Source: Narcine bancroftii (taxonomy: Eukaryota). Taken from it: DNA of 64,000 bases. Location of the stretch: positions 80,786,001 to 80,850,000 of the forward strand of contig NC_091479.1 of assembly GCF_036971445.1 (NCBI RefSeq), given 5' to 3'. The stretch's first letter is position 1; the number at the start of each line of letters is the position of its first letter. Position numbers and translations under genes: made by a program. Shown in pieces: positions 5,405 through 61,054 of the stretch. Under the pieces are notes generated by a model. It was not told the origin of the DNA. It saw only the letters and a program-made list of their open reading frames with translations, and did no database searches.

Positions 5405-34401
<28,997 letters not shown>

Positions 34402-40300: not shown

Positions 40301-43300
40301 AAAATAACATAACATTTACATAATAATTATGATCTTTTTGTTAAGATGTGGACACCTTATATGAAGAATATGAATTTAATAATATTGTAAATTACTGAAT
40401 GTTTTTGTTTATTTTTAATGCTTCCCTTTAGGGATCTGTTGTGGGAGGGGGAGGGGATGGGTTTGTTTTATTATTAGACTACTTATTCTGTAAAAGTCTG
40501 TTTATTTTTATTGAAAAAATACTAAATAAAGTTAAAATAAGAAAGCATCTCAGCTCAAAAACTGAAAGGAATTGTGAGAGAAGTGTTAAATTCCCAACTT
40601 TGCCCAGATGAGAAACCACTACTAAACTTTGGTCAAGTATGCAGGGAGAAACATTGAGGAACTGGATTATATCCATAGGCTTTTGCCCCAAAAACAGATT
40701 AAAAATAAATACAGTATAATTCCACATTTAAAAAGGTTAACCAAGGAATGCTATTCAATTTGAAATTCAAAATTACAGATTCAAGTTCTCTTTGTGATTT
40801 AGATGTAGCTCTTGAAGGAGATGTTATTAGCACTCCTGCAAAATGATATTGGAAAGATAGAAGGCATTTTTGAAATGCTATGATCTTACAGGATTTTTAG
40901 GGCAGTGATGGTGAGGAAATATGGAATAAACTTGGTCATTTAATAATTTGAAACTATTTCAAAAAAAAAAGCAAAGTCCTCTGAAGGTGATCTTTATTCT
41001 ATGAATATTAATGGTTTCTGAATTCCTGAGTTAGGGTTCTTTTAAGTTCATTAAACTTAATTCAGAGTATTTACAATGCATTCAGATTGGGTTATGCGTA
41101 CTTTTTGGGTAATACTGCTCTTGCATTTGTTGCAATAACCTGCAATCCTATTACATCCCTGCTGATGGCAGCATAGGTCTATGAGATGGTTCAGACACAG
41201 CTTATAAGGAACAATCATGTTATTTGCTGGCTGTCTTGATCCCAGTCTCACAGGAGAGAAAATTGATCAATTTTAGACTAGATTAAGGAGAGATCTTACA
41301 AACCTGGTGGTTGATTACTGGTAGCCTGAACTGGAGGTGGTGGGGGTGGTGGGGGCGGAGGTGGAGCATTCATTTGCGTCCACAGATTAGGTGGAGGAAG
41401 TGCTACTGAAGGCAGTGAGAGATTAGTATTCTGTTGATCTGAAATAAGAAAACAACATTTGTGAACTTTCATTAACCTGAAGAATAGGCATAAAACAGAA
41501 AATGCTAGAGGCACTCAAAGTCAGGGAACAGTTATGCAGAGTTCTTGATTGAGCTCAATGATTTTTCAAACAAGAAACGGGAGAAGACGAGCACGCTTTA
41601 AGTTGGGGGATGTGGAAATGGGGGGGTGGGGGGGGAAGTGTAAAAAGAGACCATCTGTGATGGAGACCACACTATCCAGGAAACATAAATGCTATTTGTA
41701 CCACCTGAAAGTGACGAATGTTTAAATCATAGCAGATCAGTTTATTGGAAGTGTAAGTGAGCCAAAAAAAATGCTACAACTGTGAGAAGCAAAACAGCTA
41801 TTGCACAAATTCTCAGATAAAAGAAAATGCAGGAAACATTCAGCAAACCATGTTGCATTGGTGCAGATAGGAAAAACTGGATTAATGTTACAGGTGGAAA
41901 ATCTGGCCAGTTCTCTCACGAACAGGAGAGATGATTCATCTGAAACTGTTCAATTCATTATCGAGTCCTAATAGCTAGAACACTTTGAGGTAGAAATGGA
42001 ATGCTGTTTCTCAAGCATACAAGGATAATAAGAAGAGGGGTCAAAAAGTGATACAGGCAGGCATGAGAATGATTGAACTCAGCAGTTCAAAGCAGTCACC
42101 CAACCTATGTTTAGTTCTCCAATGGAGAACAGACCACTGAATGCAGTGCACTAAGCAGGAAAAAGTGCAAGTGAACTCCTACCATACACAGATGGGCTGC
42201 TTGGGTCCCTGGATGGTGTGAAAGGCAGAATGGGTAGATGTTGCAATGCTTTTGTATGAATGGAAAAGTGTTATGGCTTTGGGGACCAGACTGGTTGGTG
42301 AAGGTAGGAGAGTGAAACAGAAGGATCAAAGAACATATCACCATATACAGCACAGAACAGGCCAGTTTGGCCCTACTAGTCCATGCCGGAACAAATCCCC
42401 ACCCTCCTAGTCCCACTGACCAGCACCTGGTCCATACCCCTCCAATCCTCTCCCCTCCATGTAATTATCCAGTCTTTCCTTCAATGTAAATAACGTCCTT
42501 GGTTCAACTCATTGCAAGGGAAAAGCGGTGTCTCATAGAGGAAGCTCTTTGAAGGATAATCCATTGAGTGAGGAGTTTGAGACAGAAGGTGAGGAAATAG
42601 GAATCCCCTCCTTGCCCTTGCTGGAGAGCACGAATGTGGAAAATTGAAAAGAAACAATTCACAATGTAAAGGGAAAGCCATGGTTCGGGGGAAAAAATGT
42701 ACCAGAGACATTTTTGTGGAAAGTCACATCTTCAGAACAGATACAGAGGCACATAAACTGGTAAAATAGAGCAAAGTCCTCATTTTGAAAAGGATATTGA
42801 TCACCAAACTATAAGATCAAAACAGAGAAATCAAGGAGAAGAGTCAATCATGAATGACACTGATAAAAATGTTCTGTAGGCAGAGAGGACAATTGATTCC
42901 TTTATACACCTTCCCAAGAAATAAATGGCATAGTGGGGGGTGGGGTTAAGATGATGCAAAGGCTGGTCACTTGGTCTACTATTAGAAGGTTGTCAAAATA
43001 TTTCAGAAACATAAAACAGACAGGTTAATCAACGCTGAATATTTTGAAAACGTACTCTGCTCAGGTGCTCCTGATGGGTGAAAGTAATATCCACAGCATC
43101 AACTGTAGACTGTGTTACCTGGGCCATTTGTGTAAACAGGTTCCGTATTGAAACTAGGCAGTTCAGGCATATTGCTTCCTGGTGCCGAGGGTGCAATACC
43201 CGGACCTAGATCAGCACTATACATGAGGTCATCTGCGATGCCAGGCAAGTCCGGCAAGTAGGATGGTACATCTATCTCTGGGACCTGACCCAGGTCTGGG

Positions 43301-46300
43301 ACATAGAAATAATTCTCAGTAGTCTGAAACAAAAAGAAAATGCCATATTCAGAAACCCAAGAGAAACAGCCAAAAAATATCTTGCAGCAATTTTGGAGTT
43401 GGTGCGCTAATAATAAACTGCATCATCTTAGCATTTACTTTTATTCACAAACCAGAAAACTATTTACAAATTCAACATTCTATTAGCATTTCCTTTCAAG
43501 TTTGCCAAATCCTATATTAAGCTCATAAAACTAAAGAGAAGCTTGTTCCAGATTCAAACTCAAAAGCTTAGATTTTGGTATTTTCTCCCTTTACGCCAAG
43601 CAAGGAGGTCCTTGATGAACACATTACAAGTAGAAGGAAGTAAATCTTATACTCAGCCAGCATCAACCTGATAGAATTAAAGCAAACCTCTGCATCAGTC
43701 CAAGATATTGTAATGATAATGATTTGCAGCAGTGAACATGCACAAATGGCAATTTAATTGTGCACAGAACTGTATTCCTATGCGCACAGACTGTAAAATT
43801 AACTCGTTCATTCGTTTTTGTTCAGCTAATGATGCAGTGTTGCTTTCATGAACTACAAATGATTCCAAGTACATATTGCTTGTTCTGGCCTCATTCAATG
43901 AGGTCGCTTCCAGAAGATGACAAGTGATAAATATTGATTTTGCATGAAACAAAGTTGTGTCCATTAACTCACTGGACTCCAGCCACTTTTAACCTTTCAT
44001 AATATATATTGTGGACTGGTCCGTGGGTGAACCTTTATAATACAAACACTAGTTCAAACCAGTTGGGTATAAAATAGTCCCAGAAAACCAGAACCAGGAG
44101 ATATGCACTTGATGGTAGCTCAGCAAAAATGGGGACACAGAGTATATATGCTTGTTGGAACACGGTTAAAGTATAAAGTTAAGATTTAGTGTCAGAGTAC
44201 AGAGTACATCATTATTTTTCCTGCAGGCCAGGCAGAATTTCTACTCATAAGAAGTGCAAACTGTACTCAAGAAGATACAAAGACAAGAGAACTGTAAGCA
44301 AACTGACTGTGCAATACAAAAGAAAAAAACAAATATTCAGTAATAAGTATTGTGCAAAGTAAAAGTCCTTGAATGAATCCGATTGAGTTTGTCGTTGAGG
44401 AGTCTGATGCTGGAGGGGTAGCAACTGTTCCTGAACCTAATGGTAGAAGTCTTGTGGCATCTATACCTCTTTCCTGATGGCAGCAGTAAGTCCTGGGTGG
44501 TATCGATCCCTGATGATTTCTTCTGCTCTCCGACGGCAGCATCCCATATAGATTTCTTAGTGGTGGGAAGAGTACTGTAATGTACTGGGCTCTGTCCACT
44601 ACTTTTTGCAGGGCTTCAATCAGGTATTTGTGTTCCTTACCAGGCCATGATGCAGCTGGTCAGCACACTTTGCACTACACATGAATGTATTACTTGATCA
44701 AAATGTACCCTGCATTATATACAGTATTTTTGTGGTGCAGCAAGTTATGTAGCTGGATAGACTGAGTCATGAGCTTCTTCAATGTCAAGTGATCAGATTC
44801 TCCAATATTTACCTGTCTTTCAAGTTGTTCCCTCTTGGTGATAGAGAGCGGTGCATCAAATGGCTTTTCCTCTTTCTCAGATTCTAATGCAGTATGAGTT
44901 TTTGTCACAGCACCAGATAATGGATCCAACAGAACATATTTCTTGTAGCTGCCAGAAGGAGGAGAAGAACATGACATAGTTCAATATTTTAGACTTGGCT
45001 TTCAGTAAGGACAGAACAAAAATTGCAAGCTGCATGTCAATGAAATACATTTTATATATTCTTGATAAATTTCCATTATAATCTTCAAAATTCCTAATTA
45101 CTCCATCCCAAACTTCCTAATTAGAACTTAGCCATAAAAGTTTAATGTGTGTTGGAACCAGTCCAGAATTTCTATCATTAGGGGATGTCACAGTGAAATG
45201 TACAAACTAGTTCTAGTTCCCACAGACTCATAAGGATAGTTTATGTTTATTAAAAATGCATTTGACACCCACATTAAGATCCTAAATGCAAAGGTTGAAA
45301 TAACTTCTAAATAATTCCATCATCTGCAGTCCTTTGTCTTCACTCATCACCTCCCAATCTCTGTTGCTATCTCCACCCTTCTCTTTCCCCACCCATCCAT
45401 TAAGCCCTCCTCACCTGGGTCACTTGTTACCTCCTGCCTCACATCTTAATGCTGGTTTTTTCCCCCCCATTACACTCTCTGTCCTGATGCAAGGTCTCAA
45501 CCCAAAGTCTTTCCTTCCACAGATGCTGCCTGACCTGTTCCTGTTTTTTTCTCCCCTCTGGTTCCAGTAACAGCAGTCTCTTCTGTCTCTAAATAATTTG
45601 TATCTCCTTCAGGTGGCACAGCAATAGTTCTGTTGGGATAACTATTTCTGTTAGAATTAAAACCTATGAATATATTTCACACTATACTCATTTGGCTCAG
45701 GAATGGACATTTATATAATTTGCTTTTTGAAAGGATGAGTAGATATGAAGATTGAGATTGAGAGAAAATTCCTTTACATGAACTTCAACAAGATTAAAAT
45801 GGCTTTGCAAAGTAATGACAAGTCCTTTAGTAAAAATAACAACTTTCATCCAAAATGTGTAGCTTCCAAGTTTATATTTATGAAAATCCATTCTGGGCTG
45901 TCTACACATAAGCAAAAGTTTAAGACTAGTGCTTTATTCACGTTTTTCAATTTATTCCTCTTTGCTCCAGTTCACAACAGCTAAGACTTCTTTGAAACAT
46001 TTGAGATACTGTCATACATAGAATCAACAATAAACAGTTGTAGTAAAACAACAGATCTGCTGCAGGAACTCAGGAGGTCTTGTAGGTAAAGATATACTGT
46101 ATAGCCAATGTTTTGGGCCTGATCCCTTCCTTATGGTACGAGCAAAAAGCAGGCAGGAACCTGAAGAAAAAGGCTGAGCCAAAATGCAAAAGGAAGGGTG
46201 TGGTTCTGTGAATCTAGGGCTGGAGGAAGAGACACAGGGGTGCGTAAACATTCACTCCGTAAACAGTAGTCGGGTTTTTTTAAAACATGATGCTGCCTGT

Positions 46301-49300
46301 AATTCTGCAAAAGTATTCCCAAGATATCAATATTTAATAGTGTAACTTTCATTTTGCACAATGGACCATCTTCCTTTATATTTTACATGTATCCTAGATA
46401 CACGGAATTGCTCTCTTAATAGGATCAATGGTACCTACGGGTTCTCAGTTGTGTTGAACAGCAGAAGAGAACTGATGGAGCTGATATTTCGAGGAAGACT
46501 CCCCAATCCTTCTTCCGTTTCATTGTCCTCCCGTGACTTAGTGTTTAAACACACAGGATAAAGCTTTGCTTTCTCCTAAAATAAGTTAAGGAAAATATCT
46601 AAATTAGTTTAGACAGCAAGTCTTCACCAGGGCTAGAAGCACCTGCCCTGCTAATATGGCTACAGGGTTTTCACTGGACTGTTGGAATTGATCTCCAATT
46701 TCAGGGGAAGATTTGGACAGAAAGATTGGTCTCTTTTTGTAGTCAAAACTTGGCAGATTGAATTATAGTCAGGGAATTTACCTTCATCTCACATGCCCTT
46801 TTAACTTGGAGGAAACTCTCTCTTCAGCATTCAGATACAGCAATTTCAGATGATTCTTCACAATCTTATCTCTGACAAACGTTTCATTACCATCTGCACT
46901 GAAATTAGACTCCAGAGAAAGGGTACAAATTCAGAGCAGGAGAGTGAACAGAGTCCTCCTCCCATACAAGATCATGACTGGTTTGACTGTAATGTCTGCA
47001 TTCCCAACTACTTACAGTACCACCCCTTTATCAGAAATCTATCCTATATTCCTAAAAATGGTAGATTCTTCCAAAACTGTTTAAGAGGTCCTAAAGACAC
47101 CCAACCTTCTAAGAAAAAAAATTGCCTTACAGTCTTAAATGGGTAACCCCTTATTCTTAAACAGTGACCCAAAGTTCTGGAATCTTTCATAAAACAAATA
47201 TCTTCTCCATGAATGTCTCAGCAATATCTCTCAGAATCTTATGCATCAATCAAATAACCTTTCAGATTCAGATTCATTGTCAGAGTTACTCACATGGACA
47301 TCACATACATCTCTGAGATTCTTTTTCCTGCGGGTGAGGCAGAACAAATAAAGAAATGTCTGCCTTCTTCCTCAAACATGGCTTCCTCTCCACCACTATC
47401 AATTCAGCCCTTATTCACATCTCCTCCATTTCCTGCTCATCTGCCCTGGCCTCCTCTGCCCCCAGATGCAACAATTATAGAATCTCCCTCATCCTCACCT
47501 ACCACCCCACCAGCCTCCACATCCAACACATCTACAACAGAATCCCACTACCGGACACATTTTTCTTTCTCCTCTCCTCTCGGCCCTTCATAGGGACTGT
47601 TCCCTCTGCGATTTCTTTGTGCACTCTACCCTCTATGCCCATTGCACCCCTAGCATCTTCCCCTGTGCCTACAAGAGGTGCAGCACTTGCACCCACACCT
47701 CCTCCCACACCACAGTCCAAGGCCCCAAACAGGCCTTTCAAGTGAAGCAACACTTGTACATCCAGAGGACCTATTTATTGCATCCAGTGCTCCCTCTGTT
47801 GCATTCTCGACATCAGAGAGACTGGTCACAAATTGGGAGATCGCTTCACTCAGCACCTCCTCTCCGTTCGCAACCACAGCAACCTCCCAGTGGCCAACAG
47901 TTTCAATTCCAAGTTACACTCTCACGCTCACATGTCTGTCTATGGCTTTTTTTCCATCTGGGCACTCTCCAGCTAGATGGCATGAACATTGACTTTACTG
48001 GTTTCCACTAAACCTGCTCATCTTTTCTTTCCCCTCCCCCCTTTTTTGTCTCTCTAGTTCTTCCATCCACCCAGCCATCCCTCCTCCCCCTCTTTGCTGC
48101 TGTCCCTTCCTGCCTTTCTCCACCTATCATCTCCTGCCTTTGCCTTTCCCCCCATTCTTTTGTTTAGAAGCCTGCCAGCATTTTCTCATACAGTATTTTG
48201 AAGGGCTCAAGCCCGAATTGTCAGTTCTGTATCTTTACCTTTGCTAGATAAAGGACACTATTTGACCTGCTGAGCTTCTCCAGCATTGTGTTTTTACAAG
48301 AAATGTGACTGTGCAATGCAGAGGGGGGTAAAAAAAATCAATAAAGTGGAAAAGTAAGGGTCCATAAGTAAGTCCCTGATTGAGTTTGTTGTTGAGGAGT
48401 CTGAAGGTGGAGGGATAGCAGCTGTTCATGAACCTGGTGGTGTGAGTCTTGTGGCACCTACACTTCCTTCCTGATGGTAGCAGAGAGGTCAGAGCATGTG
48501 CTGGATGTTGTGGATCCTTGATGATTGCTGCTGCTCTCCCACGGCCTTTTTCCCGGTAGATGTTCTCAATGGTGGGGAGGGTTTCACTGTTCAAACTCTA
48601 ACAAACAAGCCAGGCTTTTGCAATCTGCTGATTTCAGGAATCAGTCTAATAAACATTCCCTGAACTATTTCCAATGCATTAAAATCCTCATCAAACTTGA
48701 GACAATGGCAGAGCTGTCATTAGTGCAGACCCAGGTGTGATGGGCCAGAGGACCCAAAAGCCCAGCAGCAATAGAAATTCACAAAGACAAATGGTTACTT
48801 AAACAAAAGTTACTTTTAATTTTCTTTAAACATAAAAACAGGATCAAACTTTAACTTATTACTATTAATTTAACCCCCTCCGAATTCTAAGCGCACGTAT
48901 ATGTAATGTGTGCATAAGTTCAGAAAAGTTATTTGATTCACAATCCAATCTCATTTCTCACTCCTCCAAGTTCACTGGTATCAGGAAATTCTTATACTGT
49001 GCACAGAATTTAAAATTTATGAATCTTCACCAGGTTTTGGTGCTTGAAAGGCAAATGGGGTTACTGCTCAGGAAGGTTCTTGTCAGTTTTCAGAGAGAGA
49101 TTTGTTGCTCATTGGACACACACAACTGATTCCTTCCTTGCCACTTCAGTGTCTTGCCGAAGAAACTTGCCTTGTCAGGGTTTTCCAGATGATGACCTCT
49201 TTCTTTCAGGTCACCACAGAATTCCTTTTCTGTTTCCCTTATCTCAGGTGAAATATTATGCAGCCAGCCATCTCCTCTTGTATGGATCACAAGGGCTTTG

Positions 49301-52300
49301 AACAGGCTGAACTCAGAACTCACAACCTATCTTCAAAATGGGGTTTTCAAACAAGCTTCCAAAAGCCACTGCAGAAAACCAGCAGTTTCTCTCTCTCTCT
49401 CTGTTTCACACTTAAGAGAAAAAAAACTGTTTGACTCTCTCTGCTTGCAAATTCACATGACCCTCCTAGAACAGCAAACTGCATTTAGACAGACTGTGGC
49501 ACTGAATCTGATCTTCTGAGTCTGTTCATCTGTTGCTTTCCAAAACAATAATCCATTGCTGCACAACATGTCCAATTAACACCAACTTGTGAAATCCTTC
49601 AGCAAAGCAGTTTCCATTGTCTTTACAAAGGCACTGGGAGCCTGAACTGTCTGGCTTGAGCAGAGCTCTGGCATTTTAAATGAGATCTGTGTTGTGAAGT
49701 GTTTGCATTTGTTTGTGACCTACACTAAAAACCCACAATTTATCTTCCAAAACATATCTATATACAATATAAAATATATAATCCATCACACAGGATAGTG
49801 GGGAAAGGAGACACAGTGCTCCACTGCAGAGTCCAACTGCCCGATCGTGATGCCAACAGTTCCATACAAACTTTAAAATGGTACGTCACTGAAACATCCT
49901 GTAATTACAGAGGTCTGTGCTAAAGATAGCGGTACCTATGCTGGGTAGCATAGGGAGCAGTGGACTGGCACCAGAATCAGGGGAACACTCCCTGTTGAAA
50001 AGCCTGGGAAACAACTCTATAAGAAGGTAACAACAGCAGCAGACTAGTGAGGGGCTCAGCGGTTGAAGGACCTATGTAGGCTGCAGGTAACTTGTGGTCA
50101 AAGGACTATCACCAGGCTGTGGGCTGCTGGAGACTGGTTCACAGGAACCACGTATTGGAACAGGGTTTTGAGTGGGTGCTTGGGGGAAGAAGGGCTTGGG
50201 TGCTGAAAGCATCCTGATCATATTGAGTTTTGGATCTGAAGCTTGGGTTGCCAATGGATTGAACAGGAGTCTGTGAGGCTGCGTGAGCACCGGAGGCAAA
50301 TCCACAGACACTCCGTGCTTCTGAAGGAATCCTTTTTGCTTCTTTTTCTCTGGTCTTATTATTGAGGGTGCTGGGTAATACTCATGGCAACTCCTTTCTT
50401 GCCTTTATGGCAGGCAAAAGTTTCAGTATATCATGCATACTACATTTTTTGAATTATGACTATAAATTGAACCTTTGAACAACTACAGGTCCATTGCCTT
50501 AAGGCTGGCAGATTATGACAGATGGGTACCAATGAGTTCAATACTTGATCTTTAGCTATTCACAATAGATAGGAACAATTTGATTGAGGGGACCAAATAT
50601 GATTTCCAAATTCTAATCTGGATAGGTTTGAGGGAATGGAAGAGGATGCAAAGTCTCTTCACGGGGATATGAGCAAGAATATAGCAGATAGAATTTCATG
50701 TGAGAAAATGTGTGGTCATTCACTTTCATGAACACAAGTGGAAAACGATGATTTATTAAGAGGTGGGAGATTGAGTAGTGTTGAGATTCAAAGGGAACTG
50801 GGGATATTTGCATGTTATTTTCTGAATGTGATTATCCCATTGTAGCCATTGATTAGGTCAACTGTTAGCCTTCATTATAATAACAGGAGACAAGGTTGTC
50901 CACTGTAATTGAGAGAATGTTTCCAAATTATTTTGTGCAGATTTTGGCTTTGTACCCAAGAGAGGATGTGCTTGCCAGAGGGGGAGCTCAGCAAAGATTC
51001 AATGGATTGGTTTGCTATCCACAGCATAGTTGAATAAACTGGGACTGTATTCTCTTAAGTTTAGAAGAGAATTATCCATTGAAACGTACACAATCCTTAA
51101 AGGATTTGACAGGCTAGAATACAGAAAGATTGTTTATCCTAAGGAATCTAGTCATGGGCATAAACTGCTGGAGAATCTCAGCAGTCATAGGGCATCCATA
51201 GGATACAAAAGTATATAACCAATATTTCAGGACTGAGTCTTTCATTAAGTTATGAGCAAAAGGTAGGCAGGCATCTGAATAAAAAGGTGCAGGGGAGGAG
51301 CATAGACCACTGGGATATAGGCGAGAGGGCAGAAAAGAAAAAAGCTGAGAAGTGACGTGGAGGGAAGAATTGTTTAATTGAAAAAGAAAGGGAGTGGGGA
51401 GCTAAGGAAAGGAGACAGAGGGAAAGAAAGAGTCAGAGGAAGGCCCTAATGGAGACCAGAGAAGATGTTATCTTCTGCAATTTCCACCACCTACAACATG
51501 ATTCCCACCAGCAGAGAGACATCAGCCACTACCCTCTACCTTCCAACAAACCAATTTTAAAAACAGTTTGACAACAGACCTTGGATCTCACGTGCCCTCA
51601 CTTTCTGGACCACCTTACCATGAAGGACTTTGTCAAAAGTCTTGCTAAGGTCTATGTAAACTAGGTCTGTTTAATTGGAAACAGTTGTCTTCAAGATTCC
51701 TAGCTACCTTCTCAAGAAAAATGTCCAATTTGTGAGACAGGATTTCCTCTGCGCAAAGCCACATTCACTCCTCATCAGTTCTTGCCTTTCCAAGTGTACA
51801 CAAATTCTGTCCCTTTGAAAGCTTTTTCCTCTATATTGCCACAATTGTTACATAGCTCACTAGCCTGTAGTTTTCTGGTTTATCCATACTTCCCTTTGAA
51901 TAAGTGAACAACATGGCTATTTTTCCATCTTCTGGTACCTCATCCATGACTAAGAAAGATGCAAAAACCTTTATTAGGGCTCTAGCAATCTACTCCCTTG
52001 CTTCCCATAGAATCTTGAGGATTTGTCCACCTTAATGAGTGCCAATATCCCTCACACTTCTTCCTGCAGACAATGACATATTCCAACATACCAGATGCCT
52101 ACCTGCCTTTTGCTCACAACTTCATGAAAGACTCAGTCCTGAAATATTGGTAAATATCTTTGTATCCTATGGATGCCCTAGCTCCCATACTCCACATCCT
52201 TCTCACTGAGAAATAATAGTTTAGGACCCTGCTCATGTCCCCTCACTCCATATAGATTTCTTATTCAGTCCTGAAGGGTAATTATTTTTCCTCAACTATT

Positions 52301-55300
52301 CTCTTGCTTCCACTGTTCTTAAAGTTTTGGGAAGACCATTGCATGTCCTCTTTTCCAGGAATAGGGTACACAGCTGAAGAATAAAAAATTTTAGGACTAA
52401 GACAAGAAAGTTTCCACAATCTGAGGTAGGCAGATTCTTTGGAATTTTATAGCCTGAACAGCTGAGGACTTGGTTATTGAGTTCATTTCAAACAGAGTTT
52501 GATAGATTTCTGAATGTTAGGGAATTTAAGGGACATGGTGATATTTCTGGAAAATGGTGTTGAGATAGATTTTCAGCATGATCTTGACAAATGGTAGAGC
52601 AGAGTTAGAGGGCCAACTTCTACTAGTATTTTGTAATCTAGTCTATTCTGGAAAATTAAAATCAGGACCCAACTATCTTACTAGCCACCTCTTAAGAAAC
52701 TCTGATACAGTTGACCAGAAACTAGACAGATAGCAACCTGTAACTCCAATAATTTGCAAAGTACTTCTGCCCAAATGACTTACTTTCCCAATTTCTCCCT
52801 TCTAGTTCTCGTTAGTTATTTCTGCAATGTTACTTGTATCCTGCATCATGAAGGCTGATGGAAAATACCTGTTTAATTCTCCTTTCTTCTTGTTTTCTAT
52901 CATTAAATTCCCAGAAGCACTTGCCACAAAACCAATGCTCTCTTTGTTCTTTTAATAGAAACTATCTGTTTTTAACCATTTCTGTCCCACTTTATCACAA
53001 ACTTGCTTTTTTCTCATTCCCTTAGGAGTGGGTAAAATTATTGGAACTTGTCTGTGCTGTAATATTCTATGGTTCACAAAAGATAAACTCAGCAACAATT
53101 TTATATATATATATTTAAATTCTAGTGATGCATTTATTGCATTTCCAAAAATGTACAACTTCAGAAGCAAAATGTAATGAAATCTATTCCTCACACTGCC
53201 TTTATACATCAGATGGCATAATAAAGGAATGACTTGCAATCTCTTCTGCTCAAGAATGGGTAAAATGTTAATTTTTTTCCAGAATAAGAGTATAGTTAAA
53301 TATAAATTAGGCTCCCTGAAGAATATCAATGAACCAGCTGAACTTTTACATCAAGCTGGTGTTGTATACTTACCTTCACAATGCTGACAAAATAAATTTA
53401 AAATAAAAAGCAGCTGTATTTGAACCCTGGTCTAAAAATTTGATTCTGAGAGGATGTTTTCTTTACACTCCGCTTCAGTCAAAAGCAAGTCTCCCAGTTT
53501 GCACAGCACATAATTGAAGACTAGTTTGTATGTTTCCAACTGTGAAACTCATGAATGTATAAAAAGCTGCATGTATACACCAGTGATGTCAGTCGACCTG
53601 TGGTGCCCTTTTGACATCGCTGTTGAAATGTTGCATGGCAAATACATGCCAAAGAACAAGATGGGCTCTCAAGAGAAAAAGAAGACTTCAGCACCAACAT
53701 TTTTAAATGCTTGGATGTCTCTTTATAGGTTATTTATTGTTTGGAAATTCTCTTTTAATGATGAATTAGATTTCTCACCATTTTTCAGGTCAGTCCTTTC
53801 GACTTCTCTGCTGAGCTGGAGAGAGATTTGAAGCCTCTATCCTCAAGGGTCCCCACCTCCCTCTTCACTCCGTTCCCATCAGGAAAAAGGTAAACGAGCC
53901 TGAGACGGGGACTCAGCGGCACAGGACAGCTTCTTCCCCTCTGACATCAGATTCCTGAACCACCAACACTGCCTGACTTTGACTTTTCCTTGCTATTTTT
54001 ATTTATTTTGTAAGGTGGTTTATATGAATGTTTGCACTATGATACTGCAGCAAAAAAAAACAACCCAAATTTTGTGACATTCATGATAATAAATTCTGAT
54101 TTTTGCTCTGGTCAAAAGGGGTGCTTGCACCCATATATGTCTAGTATTTGTCATCCCAAATAACCCATGGAATTTGCAGTGAAAGAGTTAATAAAATTGT
54201 ACTACACCTGTACTGCTTTAGTAAGACTTGAATGACAATCAAAATATTCACATCATTGGAATGTGACCATCTGCACCATCAAATTTGAGCCAGGTCTATG
54301 CAGAATAATCCACCAGACCCATTCTCCTGCCCCTTCAACACCTTGAGAACATTTAGGAACTAGCAGCACTGAAAAGATAATTCATTGCTCGATCTGTTTT
54401 CTGGTTCAATTTACTTTGCATTGTAAATGAACAATACACTGCTTAAAGAAATGAAAAGGTTCAATGCATTAACTAGAAATGTACAGCACAGTAATTTGAA
54501 GTCGAGTGAGATCATTACTTTAGATCATTCACATCAATTTTGAAGATGGAAAACACTTCAGCCTCATGTGCACAGTAATTCATATTTATGAATCACATTG
54601 TGGATCATGAAGATGGTTTCAAGCACAGAACTGGAGTAAACAGAATTGAAGCTTTGTATTTTATATGCTTTAAAATTAATTTAACTACAATGCATGACAA
54701 GTTGCCAGTAACCCAGCATATTTTGGGGCTTGGCAGCACAAGTTTCAATTGACGTCAAGAATGGTGTAACTCCCACAGATTGTCTGGAGCTGTTCTAAGA
54801 AGGTCAAGTGGTTTGGCAAGCAGAGAAGTCNNNNNNNNNNNNNNNNNNNNNNNNNNNNNNNNNNNNNNNNNNNNNNNNNNNNNNNNNNNNNNNNNNNNNN
54901 NNNNNNNNNNNNNNNNNNNNNNNNNNNNNNNNNNNNNNNNNNNNNNNNNNNNNNNNNNNNNNNNNNNNNNNNNNNNNNNNNNNNNNNNNNNNNCAGCTAA
55001 CAGCGGCAGCTGGGACTGGAATAGGACAAGCTGGCAAGGTTGTGGAAAACCCCATTTGGAAGATGGGTTGTGAATTCTTAATTCAGCCTGGTCAAAGCCC
55101 TTGTGGGTCATACAAAAGGACAGGAATTCACTTGGAATGAGGAAAACAGGGGGGGATCTCTGTGGTGACCTGGAGGAGGAAGATTGTCATCTGGAGAACC
55201 CTGATGGGGCGGGTTTCGTCGGCAGGACGCTGAGGTGGCTGATTAAAAAGGAATCAGTTGTCTCTCTCTGAAGACCGACGAGAGCCTTCCTGAGCAGTGG

Positions 55301-58300
55301 CCATTTACCTTTCAGGCGCCAAAGCATGGTGAACTTTGTAAATGTTGCATTCTGTGCACAGTGTGGGAGTTGCCTGCAACTGGTGAACTTGGAGGAATGA
55401 GGGGAGTTTGGATTGTGAACCAGGGAACTTTTTTGAACTTGTACGCATATTATATGCATGTGCGCTTGGAGTTGGAAGGGGGTTAAGTCAGGTTAGTTGA
55501 GTCAGTAGTGATGAGTTGAAGTGTGGTTCTGTTTTCGTGTTTAAAAATGATTGAAAGTAACTTTTGTAAAAAGTAAAAAAAAAATGGTGTAACTAATCAT
55601 TATTATGACAAGCAAATCTGTTTCATTTAAGATGCAAAAATGTAATATTGCAATAAAACCTAAATATTGCAAAAACTGGTTTGTCCTGAAAATTATGGTT
55701 TTCATTCTCAATAAACTATGCACCCACAGCACAAGAATGTCCAAATTTAAAAGTACAAGATAATTTTGCAACCGACTTTATACTGGAAATACTCTGGATA
55801 CAAAGACTCTGGAAAGATCCAAAAGAACACGTGGCCAATTTGGAATTATTTCACAAATGAGTCATTGATGAATGACTGATACCTGTACTGCTTTCTCGTC
55901 CATTGGCTTAAACTTGCTGTGAATCTTGTACCGTGGACGTTTCTGCAAAGTGGACTCATCTACACCAGTGAAAATTGAAACATAATCCTGAAGTCTGTCA
56001 GGTGCAGGATACTTTGCACTGGAAAACACCTGTAAAAGACAAATATATACTAAGCAAAACAAATCAGCAGTAATACTGTGCAGTATATAACAGATGGTAG
56101 CATATTGAGGAACCAGTAAGGGAAAAGATTATTTTAGAAAGAGTATTGTGTAACAAGAATAAGCTAATGACGATCTAGTACAGGGGTGGCCAAACATTTT
56201 TGGTCGTGAGCCACATATAGAAAAATGTAATGAGTCGCGGGCCAAACATTATGCTTGGCAGTTTTCAACCACCTTTAACAGGCTATTTAAAGCCAGTGCG
56301 GAGCCAGAGACAGTCAGACTTTGGGGGTGGGGGCTTTGGACCCCGTGAGGGAGCACAGAGACTTCGTTTCCTGCTCTCTGTTACAGCAGCGCTGCCATTT
56401 TTTTTTCACTAATGGGCCACTCAAAATGGGCCTCAGGCTGCAAATGGCTGGGGGCCATAGTTTGGCCACCTCTGATCAAGTACTTAATGGGGCTTTAGGG
56501 AACATTGATCAGAATATGATAGAATTTTTCACAAAGATTACAGACTTTTTCTTTACAAAAAGACAAATAAAACGACCCCTCCCCCTTTCACATTATAAAT
56601 CCAGACACTAAAAATTCTATATGGGAAAGTCACTTGTATTTATACTTCAGCAGCATTTATTATTATTCTTTTTATTATATTCATAATTACAATTGGGACC
56701 CTAGATGATCCAAATATGGTTGCCATATCTTAATAAATGTCATTATTTGTTCCTTAAGTTATGTGTAATTTTTTCCATATATATATTCATCTCAGTAATC
56801 CAGGGAAACTACATTTAAAAGCAGGACAGTTTCAGTAAAAGCCAACATTTAAAGAACTAATAATAGTTAAGTTTTGTATACCTTTAGGCAAAAAAAACAG
56901 GTAAAGTAAATCAGATTTGACTATTGACAGAATTTGTGGATTGTTAGATTAAGGGAAAAAGTTTATAAAACCAAAAGCAGCAAAACCTGAAGATTGGGAA
57001 AATTCAAAATACAAAGGGGAAAACTGAACTCACGGGATTGGAAAAGCGATTCAAGAGTAGGCTGGTGAGAAACAAGCAGATTGCAGTTATATTTCATTTA
57101 TCATGACCTTGGCATTCCTGGCAAGGCCAGCATTCATTCTCCATCCCTAATTGGAGTGCAGATTCAATTGTTCTTTTTCCAATTTTGGATTGAAAATATC
57201 AGAACATCTAAATTCAAATCATGCAATAGAATGTGATCATATGTGATCATTTTTTTCCCAAATTAAATGGCACCATGTTTTCATAAAGTCAGTTTCAAAT
57301 CACATTTACTCAAAGAAAATAATGAATTCAGCCCTTACTTTAGTTGCTTTCTTGCTGCCTTTAATTTTCTTGATCTTAGCTTGTGCCAGATTGATCCGTT
57401 CACTGATGGACCTCAAGCGAGTTTGGTTACTTTCCACATTTTGGGAAACCCTGTAATGTGACATCCTGTTAAGATTTTCTTCTACAAGGTCAAACACCAT
57501 TGTGAAAATGTAATTACCACGTCTTAATTTCAATGGATGAAGTTAATGCAAAGATAGTTAGATAGATTCAAATTGGATGGACAGAATGTTCCCTCCACCA
57601 TCAGACTCCTCAGCAACAAACTCAATCAGAGAGTTGTTTAAGGACTCTTACGTGCACTTTATGGATTTAAAAAATTCTCTCTGTATTGCAGTCAGTTTGC
57701 TTACATCCGTTTTCTGTTTACAGTTCTTTATCTGTTTACATGTTTATGCTGTGTATGGACAGTTTTTTTTTTGCACGATCAATTCGTGGAAATTCTGCTT
57801 TGCCTGCAGGAAAAGGAATTTCAGGGTTGTATGTGATGTCATGTATGTGCTCTGACCATAAATCTGAAATCTGGGGAACACATTTTACAAGCAGCTTCTC
57901 AGAGGGGTCTATAGTTCAGGAGGCAACTGTTTTCTGCAGACAGGTTGAGAAGTTACGGATGGAACCAGAAAAGTCAGAATAGTTACTCTCGAGGAGACCA
58001 TTGAGATAAAAGTGACCAAGCTACAGGGAAGATAAATTCTGAGAAAGTGTGTTAAAAGGTAGATAAACTATTACAACAGCATGTTTGACCTAATGCCATT
58101 GGATTAATCATTTCATTCCTCATTACAGCATTGTCTCTGCTCCATCCTCAACATTCATTGGAGCGACTTCATCCCTAACATCAAAGTACTCGAGATGGCA
58201 GAGGCCGACAGCATCGAATCCACACTGCTGAAGATCCAACTGCACTGGGTAGGTCACGTCTCCAGAATGGAGGACCATCGCCTTCCCAAGATCGTATTAT

Positions 58301-61054
58301 ATGGCAAGCTCTCCACTGGCCACCGTGACAGAGGTGCACCAAAGAAGAGGTACAAGGACTGCCTAAAGAAATCTCTTGGTGCCTGCCACATTGACCACTG
58401 CCAGTGGGCTGATATCGCCTCAAACCATACATCTTGGCGCCTCACAGTTCGGCGGGCAGCAACCTCCTTTGAAGAAGACCACAGAGCCCACCTCACTGAC
58501 AAAAGACAAAGGAGGAAAAACCCAACACCCAACCCCAACCAACCAATTTTCCCTTGCAACCGCTGCAACCGTGTCTGCCTGTCCCGCATCGGACTTGTTA
58601 GCCACAAACGAGCCTGCAGCTGACGTGGACATTACCCCTCCATAAATCTTCGTCCGCGAAGCCAAGCCAAAGAAGACAGCATATTATATGTTGAATTTCA
58701 ATCACTTTTGGTGCCGTATACAATAAAAAAAGATTTACAGGTACAAGGTTCACAAACTTTGCAAATGAAGTTTGAGGTTTTCCGCTTGGGTACAATATAA
58801 AATATAAGTGACGAGAACTTGTAAACCTGTCTGCAGAAGCTTGCACAAAACCCGAAAATCTAAACTCCACTAGGTGCAACACAATAAGAAATAAGATGCA
58901 ATACTCTCCGTCCAGCCACAAGTGCAGCTTCAAAGACCTCAATAGTCAACTTTATTCAGAGTAACTCAATTCAACTGAAGGCAGTCCACTATTTATGTGC
59001 TCGACCAAATTGCATAGGCTAAGATTGGTGCGGAAGCTCATTAAATAACAGAAGGGATAGTAACCCTTGGGGGGGGGGGGGGGGGAGTACAAATTAGTGC
59101 CAATGGTGCTATGAATAGTTAACATTGCAATGTACAGTAACAATGAAACTATGAACATTGCAGATCTTGCATATAAAAATCTAACTGACACCATAATTTA
59201 ACTGAACCTGGAGAGGGGGTGCTGGGAGAAGAGGCCTTATGAATGTTTTTCTACGTTATTATATTAATTGAGTACTATATTCTGTATTTTCTTGAAACTT
59301 AAATAAAATATTCAAAAACCCTCACTCCTATTGTGACTGGTACATGTAGAAGGCAACATAATTTATCTCTGATACATCTTGGTTTTAAACATTACTTCCT
59401 TTCTTTTTTCTTAATGTCTCTTCTGAGTCTCTGCAACTGAGAAGAGGTCCTTCATTCCCAATTGTTACTTTCATTGAAATCAACTGAAATCAACCACTTG
59501 ACCACTTCTCAGACAACAGGACCATTCAGCTTGTGCCCATTCCCCTTTTCAACTTTTGGTCAATATTCCTTTAGACAAATACAGTCATGTGCAAATTAAG
59601 TCTCTTAAATTTGACGAGGGTTTCTGCTTCCACAATCTTTTTCTTGAGAAACTGAGGAGAGTCTCTAATCTAGTGTATAGTCTCCTCATGATGCAAACCT
59701 AACAGGATGACTGGAAGAGAGCACATCAGTTCTCAGTGAAGTACTACTGGATCATTTTAATTCAGCGTTGTAAAACTGGAAATGGGAAAAGTTTCCTGTA
59801 AATTTCTCTAAAAAGAAAATAATGACTTTTATGGTTCTACCAATTAACATATACCTATGTCAATTAGTTGGGTTAGAAATGGATTCTTTCTGTTCACTTA
59901 GCCTGGGTTCAATATTATACTATCTCCATCACACCACTATGAGAAACATAGATCCAAGTTAGTTGGGTATTGAGCAGTATCCATGTTCTCAGGTATACAA
60001 GAACATAGGAAGCACTCTTATACCAATCCATTGCTTGTGGTTGAAACATTATCTGAGTAGCCTTTATCTATCTGAATTTCTCCTGAAATGTATCTCATTA
60101 ATCTACAATTTGATCAAATCTAGCACCTATTCAATTTTCTTTGTAATCTTCCATTTGTTTTTTGTTTCCTAACACAATCAATGAAATACCTTCCTTCTCA
60201 TGAATCTTTCAACATCTCTCCCATCTAAAAAATATACTCTGAATATCAGTAAAGATCAATGCTATCAATCCAGGCAATCTAATTTTTCTTGCAACATCCA
60301 GCATACCAACTGTACCCTTCATAACCATTTACTCCATCTTTTGTCCCTGACCTGGACAAACCAATTCATACACAAGCAATTTTTTGTATACTAAGTTTAT
60401 GTCTTCAAACGGCCACATTAAAGACCATTATCCATCAGCTTTCAGCCTCTGGGCATCATTCTTCCATTCCTTTGCATCAGAGAGAAGGCTTTTCAGCTAA
60501 CGACCTCCAGTTTTCTCCCTAAACTCATCTGTAGAAGTCTCATTAACCCCACTGTTATGACACATTCTTTATTAAAGACTCAATAATCATTCTTTCACCT
60601 TTACATGCTTAAAAAAAATTGAAAAATACTTTGATTTATAATTTTATCCTACGTTAAAATGTTCCACATCACTTCACATGCAATTGTGTAATTTTGAAGT
60701 ATATTCTCTCTATTGTAAGGATTTTGGACAATTTATGCATAGAATAATCAACAGATCATGGGTTTTAGACTGAGTGATGAATATTGGCCATGACACCCAG
60801 GCTAATTTGCTGTATGGGCAGAACTGAATACATGTAAATAATAATTGTTATGCTCTACAAAAGCTATCAAAAGTATCACCAAGAAATCTATTTAGAGACT
60901 TTCAAGACCCATACCTAGTAAACACATCATTGGAGATTTTCTGTAAATATTGAAGGGCATCGCTGATCTGGTGAATGGCTTCCTCACGACGCAAGTCTGA
61001 CTGGATGATTGGAACAGTGTATACCTGTCCTTCAGTGAAGCACTTCTGCATCAT
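37190..61054 (-). CDS. WASHC1: WASH complex subunit 1 (WASH1), complete, 10 coding exons, 469 aa
   Basis: complement(join(37190-37356,37726-37794,38550-38711,41304-41438,43119-43323,44813-44948,46439-46575,55883-56029,57339-57450,60915-61054)) = 1410 nt, GT-AG introns with consistent phases. WHD1/WHD2, polyproline, WH2 ([13 protein letters not shown]), central ([11 protein letters not shown]) and acidic (EDDDDWEA*) motifs present. Confidence 0.96.
37726..37794 (-). CDS. WASHC1: WASHC1 coding exon 9 (central region)
   Basis: tgtag|(G)[22 protein letters not shown]|gtata. Confidence 0.94.
37939..38239. mobile_element. Tc1/mariner-type MITE
   Basis: TIR caggttgtacct / aggtacaacctg with TA on both sides. 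Confidence 0.75.
38550..38711 (-). CDS. WASHC1: WASHC1 coding exon 8 (WH2)
   Basis: ggaag|(D)[36 protein letters not shown]...QKEQEQ|gtatt. Confidence 0.94.
39310..40541. mobile_element. 5'-inverted, internally deleted L1 (~1.2 kb)
   Basis: EN N-terminus on minus (39310-39512), EN continuation and ORF2 C-terminus on plus, A-rich tail; TSD aaaggatctcagctca 39294-39309 / aaagcatctcagctca 40542-40557. Confidence 0.8.
41304..41438 (-). CDS. WASHC1: WASHC1 coding exon 7 (polyproline)
   Basis: ttcag|(D)[44 protein letters not shown]|gtttgt; donor chosen to keep frame with the next exon. Confidence 0.85.
41490..42800 (-). mobile_element. Old Penelope-like remnant with a nested short repeat (~42330-42500)
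   Basis: Degenerate reverse-complement similarity to the two plus-strand Penelope-like copies; limits approximate. Confidence 0.4.
43119..43323 (-). CDS. WASHC1: WASHC1 coding exon 6
   Basis: ttcag|[46 protein letters not shown]...NGP|gtaac. Confidence 0.96.
44813..44948 (-). CDS. WASHC1: WASHC1 coding exon 5
   Basis: gcag|[18 protein letters not shown]...[14 protein letters not shown]|gtaaa. Confidence 0.95.
46439..46575 (-). CDS. WASHC1: WASHC1 coding exon 4
   Basis: tttag|EKAKLYPVC...[25 protein letters not shown](P)|gtagg. Confidence 0.95.
47350..48298 (+). mobile_element. Penelope-like element remnant
   Basis: Homologous to 20165-21190 ([24 protein letters not shown]); ends in the gacctgctgag...ctccagca terminal repeat. 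Confidence 0.7.
48300..48590 (-). mobile_element. Rex1/Babar-like LINE 3' fragment; related pieces at ~44190-44680 (-), ~53840-54100 (+), ~57580-57870 (+)
   Basis: [23 protein letters not shown]...[17 protein letters not shown], typical of this clade's C-terminus. Confidence 0.6.
48736..49790 (-). mobile_element. Solo LTR, copy 2
   Basis: Terminal inverted repeat TGTGATGG...CCATCACA, perfect 4-bp TSD cagg (48732-48735 / 49791-49794), ATTAAA on minus at 48820-48815. Confidence 0.85.
50480..51150 (+). mobile_element. CR1-like LINE fragment
   Basis: [26 protein letters not shown] and upstream degenerate RT motifs. Confidence 0.55.
54772..55582 (+). mobile_element. Polyadenylated retrocopy of the same LTR family, A-to-G hypermutated; contains an N gap
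   Basis: Reverse-complement homology to both solo LTRs, lacks both LTR termini, A tail ~55568-55584, TSD aatggtgtaact 54760-54771 / 55583-55594. Confidence 0.8.
54831..54993. other. Assembly gap
   Basis: Run of N at the position where LTR copy 1 has its (CT/AG)n microsatellite. Confidence 0.99.
55883..56029 (-). CDS. WASHC1: WASHC1 coding exon 3
   Basis: tacag|[16 protein letters not shown]...MDEKAVQ|gtatc. Confidence 0.95.
56181..56474. mobile_element. hAT MITE
   Basis: TIR caggggtggccaaac / gtttggccacctctg; 8-bp TSD atctagta / atcaagta. Confidence 0.8.
57339..57450 (-). CDS. WASHC1: WASHC1 coding exon 2
   Basis: tacag|[37 protein letters not shown]|gtaag. Confidence 0.95.
58132..58675 (+). 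mobile_element. RTE-clade non-LTR retrotransposon, 5'-truncated, same family as 21506-22013
   Basis: Near-identical ORF C-terminus and tail; TSD acagcat 58125-58131 / 58676-58682. Confidence 0.88.
59635..59795 (-). pseudogene. Decayed duplicate of WASHC1 coding exon 1 (pseudoexon)
   Basis: Reads MIQ*YFTE...[25 protein letters not shown] versus the real MMQKCFTE...[26 protein letters not shown]; the upstream acceptor region also aligns. Confidence 0.8.
60915..61054 (-). CDS. WASHC1: WASHC1 coding exon 1
   Basis: [46 protein letters not shown](R)|gtatg; acceptor just upstream of the ATG. Confidence 0.93.

Follow-up and report, generated by a model that had tools for sequence, protein, structure and literature searches.

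An A-tailed, densely A-to-G-changed LTR fragment in a WASHC1 intron of Narcine bancroftii: a probable DNA record of ADAR-edited Gypsy RNA

How does a fragment of a long terminal repeat (LTR) come to have G at dozens of positions where its relatives have A? The question is raised by a segment of ca. 0.8 kb in the genome of Narcine bancroftii, within the window analyzed here (64,000 nucleotides of contig NC_091479.1, positions 80,786,001 to 80,850,000 of the forward strand; positions below are counted from its first letter). This segment, labeled Q (54772 to 55574, plus strand), corresponds, by comparison with other copies, to the R part of the LTR of what appears to be a Gypsy-type (Gmr1-like) retrotransposon. 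A preliminary description had proposed that it derives from an LTR transcript hyperedited by ADAR and retroposed by LINE-1 (L1). The changes are one-way A to G on the sense strand, have an ADAR-like sequence context and are confined to R; the copy has the anatomy of a retrocopy, is present in two samples, and is not the only one of its kind in the genome. We consider it highly probable that ADAR acted on the element's own double-stranded RNA (dsRNA) and that reverse transcription by L1 then fixed the product in the germline.

The anatomy of Q is that of processed pseudogenes and of poly(A)-tailed LTR or endogenous retrovirus (ERV) RNAs inserted by L1, whose hallmarks are an A tail at the RNA cleavage site, a target-site duplication (TSD) of 12 to 15 bp, an A-rich target and the loss of U3 and U5; Q differs from them in that its template had dense A-to-G changes. 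Its TSD (54760 to 54771 and 55583 to 55594) is exact over 12 bp and extends to 15 bp (from 54757) with one mismatch, within the L1-type range of ca. 7 to 20 bp. Both LTR ends, U3 and U5, are absent, as had been noticed from the letters, and the other copies run ca. 70 nt beyond the point at which Q stops and end in CA. At the position of the poly(A) signal (55550 to 55555) Q reads ATTGAA, where most copies have ATTAAA. The coordinates and strings quoted for these features in the preliminary description were correct. The A tail reported at the end of Q is also there, but its extent has to be corrected, because all 10 matches (9 distinct) of a motif marking the family's main poly(A) site, which is the 3' end of Q, turn to A directly after AAGT. 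The AAGT at 55571 to 55574, inside the apparent tail, is therefore probably LTR sequence, and the true tail would occupy ca. 55575 to 55582, continuing into the TSD (55568 to 55572 are also A). A separate search for A-ended copies gave 25 matches at 21 places, 17 of which prove to be LTRs that carry an A-rich variant and run on into U5, and 4 of which are truly A-ended, a few bases before the main site. At the other end, Q starts ca. 34 nt downstream of a TATA-like word found in other copies, so it could be close to the whole R region; the start is uncertain, because 10 of 29 copies have a second TATA-like word farther upstream. The L1 endonuclease prefers TTTT/AA-like sites on the bottom strand. 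The target of Q, pyrimidines followed by purines on that strand, fits loosely, and only with the 15-bp TSD; that of L096, a second edited A-tailed copy described below, fits well (TT, then AAGA).

The substitution spectrum is what sets Q apart. Excluding from all counts the N run in its 5' half, and using sites at which at least 70% of the other copies agree (31 other copies), 49 of 176 A positions are G in Q, against 1 C at 139 T positions (Fisher P = 6e-13). Polarization by pairs of real copies (triplets) gives the same picture, with 44.7 of 166 A changed to G (27%) and 1.9 of 130 T changed to C; by the same method, A to G in the 31 other copies averages 2.7%, with a maximum of 7.4%. The remaining 11 substitution types are ordinary in this triplet comparison, which bears out the one-directional change first reported; there is no APOBEC-type excess of sense G to A (7%, vs 2 to 10% in other copies). 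Two other members of the family lie in the window, both solo LTRs on the minus strand that are not hyperedited: copy 1 (23738 to 24767) and copy 2 (48736 to 49790, with TG..CA ends and a 4-bp TSD, inverted with respect to Q). Exactly seven positions between 55261 and 55320 are A in both and G in Q, as had been counted, and the three further examples of A-to-G strings are also right. The changes begin abruptly, with 1 of 35 A sites affected in 54994 to 55134 and 47 of 144 from 55135 on (P = 1e-4), so that a hyperedited zone from 55139 to 55553 (plus strand) holds 48 of the 49 sites. L096 is truncated at its 5' end almost where the editing of Q starts (the two were compared over 55135 to 55567 of the window).

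The neighboring bases point to the enzyme. By 5' neighbor, A is changed to G in Q at 15 of 25 sites after T, 22 of 69 after A, 8 of 38 after C and 4 of 44 after G, and in ordinary copies at 1.3 to 3.3% in all four contexts. It had been suggested that A preceded by G is spared; the depletion is real (4/44 vs 45/132 elsewhere, P = 9e-4), but sparing is not complete, four such sites being edited. Depletion of G upstream is a shared motif of ADARs, according to the part of PMC5625713 used here. Because the spectrum is one-way, lies on the sense strand and follows the order T>A>C>G at the 5' side, as is known for ADARs, which favor U or A there, we hold ADAR to be the likely source of the changes.

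A first alternative is that the G letters are an assembly artefact or belong to a G-rich subfamily that went unrecognized; Q does adjoin an N run, and the DNA search of the 3.3-Gb genome scored only 40 of 8,595 candidates. Ten runs from four studies contain the stretch or part of it, and four of them (X1, X5, X6 and X10) were compared, all as contigs, with 32 pieces listed. Zero-mismatch contigs of X1 span the 5' junction (54301 to 54804) and the 3' junction (55507 to 56600), and those of this run cover 16 + 6 of the G sites, with no G-bearing contig at 55505. X5, from another sample and study under the same organism label, has a zero-mismatch contig over 12 G sites, and the two together cover 28 of the 49, so the G alleles are present in read-derived contigs of two samples from two studies. 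X6 has only family copies among the pieces listed, and no RNA run is among those listed as containing the stretch. Nor is G the consensus of a subfamily: the closest other copy among those scored (29 other loci) is 80% alike, and no more than 6 of 47 G sites are shared by any of 48 copies. Both TA>TG changes of a diagnostic motif occur in only 9 of 8,074 motif-matching copies, and the edited copies belong to separate branches and differ in their ends. We give artefact or subfamily next to no probability. In X10, from another organism (organism C), both flanks of Q are matched at ca. 91%, and there is no depth from 54537 to 55446. The lack of depth over most of the LTR (in the region 53900 to 56600) raises the possibility that the whole family postdates the split.

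If such copies arise by a general process, Q should not stand alone. Four sense motifs asking for A-to-G changes and their four mirror-image T-to-C counterparts were searched for genome-wide, and another A-to-G-skewed, A-tailed copy was found, plus five solo LTRs. The nine matches of the motif with two TA>TG changes are Q, L096, four edited solo LTRs and three unedited copies (two of them duplicates). L096 is a 5'-truncated retrocopy with a 15-bp TSD after TT, and has 54 of 139 A changed to G vs 1 of 111 T to C; the corresponding figures for the solo LTRs are 54/281 vs 6/256 (L092), 45/226 vs 13/217 (L094), 23/178 vs 2/170 (L091) and 19/303 vs 4/264 (L090). A second motif gave 16 matches, mostly subfamily variants, i.e., Q, 14 unedited copies and the solo LTR L112 (55/243 vs 11/224; no TSD seen). 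The third matched Q only, and the fourth, the sole one not designed from Q, had one match, which is unedited. The mirror-image motifs gave 0, 1, 0 and 40 matches, the last mostly subfamily variants, and none of the 31 examined is hyperedited. All seven hyperedited copies are edited on the sense strand. Among 76 loci chosen without regard to edits none is strongly edited (pooled, A to G 393/16,630 and T to C 329/14,910). L048, L060 and L072, which reach P < 0.01, were not counted as edited, because U3 is also affected in them and the signal is weak toward the end of R. From the six edited copies among the nine double matches of 8,074, corrected for a detection of ca. 30%, we estimate very roughly that 0.2 to 0.3% of copies are edited. 

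The pooled neighbors of the five strongest copies, after removal of the sites selected by the search, repeat the order seen in Q (5' T 56/99, A 104/284, C 27/121, G 30/163) and add a 3' preference for G (70/153, 46%, vs 25 to 30% for the other bases). The limits of the edited zone are equally informative. There is no A-to-G excess in the U3 of the solo LTRs (0/54 in L092 and 2/66 in L090; 5/57 in L091), A to G equals T to C in the U3 of L094 and L112, and in the U5 of the edited solos 2 of 24 sites are changed, vs 80 of 229 in the terminal stretch of R (P = 0.006). The copies have their 3' limit in common, namely the poly(A) site, and differ in the 5' one. Two options fit this combination. The molecule that stops at the poly(A) site may be the edited RNA itself, as an R-only transcript or the 3' R, or it may be the partner, as an antisense RNA made from A-tailed copies that are truncated at the 5' end.

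These patterns bear on biased misincorporation by a reverse transcriptase, for instance under skewed deoxynucleotide (dNTP) pools, with no deaminase involved. Reverse transcriptases can hypermutate when pools are imbalanced, and many of the edits lie in A runs, as the pooled count after A illustrates. Even so, the rate is highest after T and lowest after G, the changes stop at the zone borders within one copy, the U3 part of that cDNA is spared, an identical bias would have to be assumed for two different enzymes, and 13 other A-tailed copies are clean. We regard misincorporation as very unlikely.

The locus itself suggests another possibility. Q is intronic and antisense to WASHC1, since exons of this minus-strand gene lie on both sides; the nearest is in a reading frame at 55862 to 56128 (minus strand, positions 76 to 128 of the WAHD profile), and further WAHD exons are in frames 57306 to 57542, 44690 to 44980 and 43099 to 43422. 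Editing of the WASHC1 pre-mRNA is discarded, as it was in the preliminary description, because the gene is on the minus strand and the changes are on the plus. The DNA could nevertheless have been changed in place, either by ADAR attacking the plus strand, as the template, within an R-loop at WASHC1, or by gene conversion from edited pre-mRNA paired with the inverted copy 2. ADARs do edit DNA in model DNA:RNA hybrids, as described in the part of PMC12925331 considered here, the plus strand is the WASHC1 template strand, and the inverted copy is 5 kb away. Yet pre-mRNA edits would read T to C on the plus strand, both element strands would be expected genome-wide and all seven cases are sense, the flanks compared with organism C lack a matching excess (G to A 7 vs C to T 13), and the edits keep within the limits of R. 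A change in place thus seems scarcely credible to us.

It is also conceivable that the edits were fixed in two steps, the element's own reverse transcriptase first placing them in a solo LTR, and the G-rich locus being later transcribed and its RNA, with G rather than inosine, retroposed by L1. Five hyperedited solo LTRs do exist, and the excess of G sites shared between Q and L096, given below, could mean a common edited parent. No such parent was found; the best relative is the one at 80% already mentioned, and unedited copies share at most six G sites. G sharing between Q and the edited solos is at chance level, and Q and L096 share only 1 of 14 other changes. Moreover, A-tailed copies are rare (10 matches vs 8,207 running into U5) and yet make up two of the seven hyperedited copies (one of six without Q), and ATTGAA, if already present in the template, would act as a weak signal. 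Fixation in two steps is therefore improbable, though less so than the other alternatives. A single edited ancestor of all seven copies was rejected, given that 9 of 10 pairs of edited copies have G sites in common at a level close to chance and that the copies fall on different branches of a weakly supported tree.

Several observations weigh against direct retroposition of ADAR-edited RNA. Q and L096 share 27 G sites where 19.3 are expected (P = 0.0016, in 1 of 10 pairs), and Q alone does not show the preference for 3' G (14/50, P = 1); at this position ADARs favor G, or A in some lineages. The 13 A-tailed copies that came up without any selection for edits are all free of hyperediting, three of the four sense motifs were designed from Q, and the controls examined cover 31 of 41 matches. 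The support for the G alleles comes from assembled contigs rather than from raw reads; X1 is possibly the sample from which the assembly was made, the kind of X5 is a guess, and the zero-mismatch contigs listed leave 21 of the 49 G sites uncovered. No empty site was seen, no flank-joining X10 contig being among the pieces listed. The editing is deduced from DNA, and the partner RNA is a candidate. In cell assays, ADAR1 and ADAR2 restrict L1, yet no editing of its RNA is detected, as reported in the portions of PMC12925331 and PMC8677026 used here. Finally, shuffled sequences fold as well as the homologous R zone of three unedited copies (z +0.7 to +1.2, longest helix 8 to 9 bp).

The last result concerns the nature of the duplex. 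No inverted LTR piece occurs in the long elements checked, the inverted repeat of L121 lying outside the LTR, and self-folding is thus excluded for the three unedited copies and for these elements. Because the RNA's own fold is not the duplex, a second RNA is the likely partner, and the best candidate would be antisense transcript from the thousands of oppositely oriented intronic copies, of which Q itself is one. In L124 and L127, an inverted piece of the same LTR directly follows the A tail, so that read-through RNA would form a hairpin, a candidate ADAR substrate.

The events behind Q would then be as follows. A solo LTR or a 5' LTR would have been transcribed from a start inferred here, and its RNA cleaved at its own poly(A) site, a site indicated by the other A-tailed copies. 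Some 420 nt of this RNA may have paired with complementary RNA, and ADAR would have deaminated about one-third of the adenosines, to judge by spectrum, strand and context. Presumably L1 ORF2p, the enzyme suggested by the anatomy, used the tail for priming where an A-rich site had been nicked, inosine being read as G and a TSD of 12 to 15 bp created. Both editing and insertion would have taken place in the germline. The same kind of editing would have been fixed at least six more times, once by the L1-type route and five times in solo LTRs, in which the element's own reverse transcriptase is the likely route. The preliminary description further held that the transcript was polyadenylated before its signal was edited. 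While the retroposition of hyperedited LTR RNA is supported, this order is possible and unproven; ATTGAA is also present in the unedited L007 and L044, L096 retains ATTAAA and has its last 35 nt unedited, and in L092 an RNA with an edited signal still yielded a whole LTR.

More tentatively, a wider scheme might connect both kinds of copies, although we hold it to be somewhat doubtful. In the germline, short R-only transcripts of solo LTRs, which number in the thousands, would pair with antisense intronic RNA, be edited by ADAR and enter the genome through two doors, either as whole copies made by L1 or as strand-transfer templates in Gypsy particles, leaving edited R between unedited U3 and U5. 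If so, A-to-I editing would be a recurring, heritable and context-specific mutagen, a mirror of APOBEC that genome scans filter out, and genomes would preserve the activity and motif of germline ADAR in a form that can be dated. There are 13 other A-tailed, U5-less copies, several of them with TSD-like repeats. In L047, L127, L131 and L132 the exact 5' TG end is kept, the poly(A) site is followed by an A tail, and a long TSD was not found; such U3-R-poly(A) copies are explained neither by ordinary integration nor by simple retroposition through L1.

Clusters of A-to-G changes are known from proviruses. The sections of PMC12925331 used here list them in the U3 of Rous-associated virus, in an inverted repeat of avian leukosis virus and in HTLV-2/STLV-3, and PMC8025556 describes, in the part drawn on, three proviruses of bovine leukemia virus (BLV) with at least 7 changes in ca. 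70 bp of the 3' LTR U3. As in the family of Q, clustered sense A-to-G changes from edited RNA are recorded there in integrated DNA. Those accounts concern exogenous viruses, studied in cells or in somatic clones, that were copied by their own enzyme and changed mostly in U3, whereas here the element is endogenous and Gypsy-type, the copies are inherited, the changes extend over at least ca. 400 nt of R, and two cases have an A tail and a long TSD that point to L1 acting in trans. It is a case like ADAR hypermutation of proviruses, and new in being an endogenous Gypsy-type element, affected in R, inherited, recurrent and entering by two routes. LTR elements edited by APOBEC are likewise strand-biased, hypermutated germline copies recognized by spectrum, strand control and context (PMC4866542, in part), but their G-to-A changes come from C to U on minus-strand cDNA. 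The filter of that vertebrate scan, in the text used here, was G to A and not A to G, other cluster types being called negligible, and PMC2873906 treats A to G in DNA traces as a control in the part considered. The ADAR hyper-editing of metazoans has the same repeat targets, cluster density and upstream-G depletion, there in RNA only and here in DNA (PMC5625713, same part as above). ADARs also help to silence LTR elements of C. elegans, according to the portion of PMC7084138 used. Our literature search found no report of ADAR-hyperedited RNA retroposed into a germline by L1, nor of such Gypsy copies; most subscription papers were outside its reach, and novelty is unproven.

It has long been asked whether A-to-I RNA edits can be inherited as DNA changes, and direct evidence is scarce. 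Seven copies, two routes and strand and zone controls within one genome now bear on it, and RNA edits are likely to have become heritable recurrently in this genome. If our reading holds, germline ADAR is catalytically active on Gypsy LTR RNA, and RNA heavily laden with inosine can still be inserted by L1-type machinery. A genome-only assay (sense A to G vs T to C, 5' context and A-tailed copies) is applicable to every assembly and would map the places and times at which ADAR edited mobile RNA. Since edited copies are only roughly 0.2 to 0.3%, the effect on genome composition is small, and the value of the phenomenon is mechanistic.

As for the source family, more than 8,000 copies match single exact motifs (8,074 by one, and by another the 8,207 that continue into U5), and its solo copies have TG..CA ends and 4-bp TSDs. 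Among 30 loci examined for a primer site, ca. 16 share a leader opening with a TGGGG word, which we take to be a tRNA-Pro-like primer site. In L118, two LTRs surround frames that match Integrase_H2C2 and rve and then RVT_1, and the best PDB match of its integrase is Ty3. An integrase placed before the reverse transcriptase defines the Gmr1-like Gypsy layout, so by domain order and PDB match the source is predicted to be a Gmr1-like Ty3/Gypsy family. In ERVs the pol order is reverse transcriptase-RNase H-integrase, usually with an env. An ERV was rejected as the source, since here the integrase precedes the reverse transcriptase and no env family was matched among the frames scanned. Gmr is a fish Gypsy branch, and the LTRs of Gmr1 to Gmr4 measure 337 to 518 bp, as given in the part of PMC11117352 used here. 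The family of Q has the same upstream integrase, Ty3-like and between two LTRs, but its LTRs are longer, ca. 1.0 kb. The machinery invoked is encoded in the genome, in which 72 matches to PF02994 (L1 ORF1) lie above the cutoff, many in open frames of 305 amino acids, and ADAR-type deaminase exons are found on six contigs.

A broken A-rich LINE in the window (ca. 11700 to 17500, minus strand), with endonuclease and reverse transcriptase Pfam matches and an A-rich 3' end, has L1-like anatomy. L125 joins an L1-like 3' end (81% to this LINE) to U3-R and a tail of 24 A, a possible L1 3' transduction by way of the LTR poly(A) site. A different Gypsy element, with canonical order and open frames of 1,075 and 320 amino acids, sits inside a copy of the family of Q (L086, 2266 to 6453, minus strand). 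The seven near-identical copies L033 to L039 (C1, 216.9 to 217.3 Mb) have a common 3' flank, i.e., they are local segmental duplications and not separate insertions. Adjoining another copy, in L119 (274 to 654, minus strand), there is a match to the EpoR ligand-binding Pfam family that is probably a host exon. The window also contains a pair of 508-bp repeats, 95% alike and in the same orientation (21504 to 22011 and 58172 to 58676).

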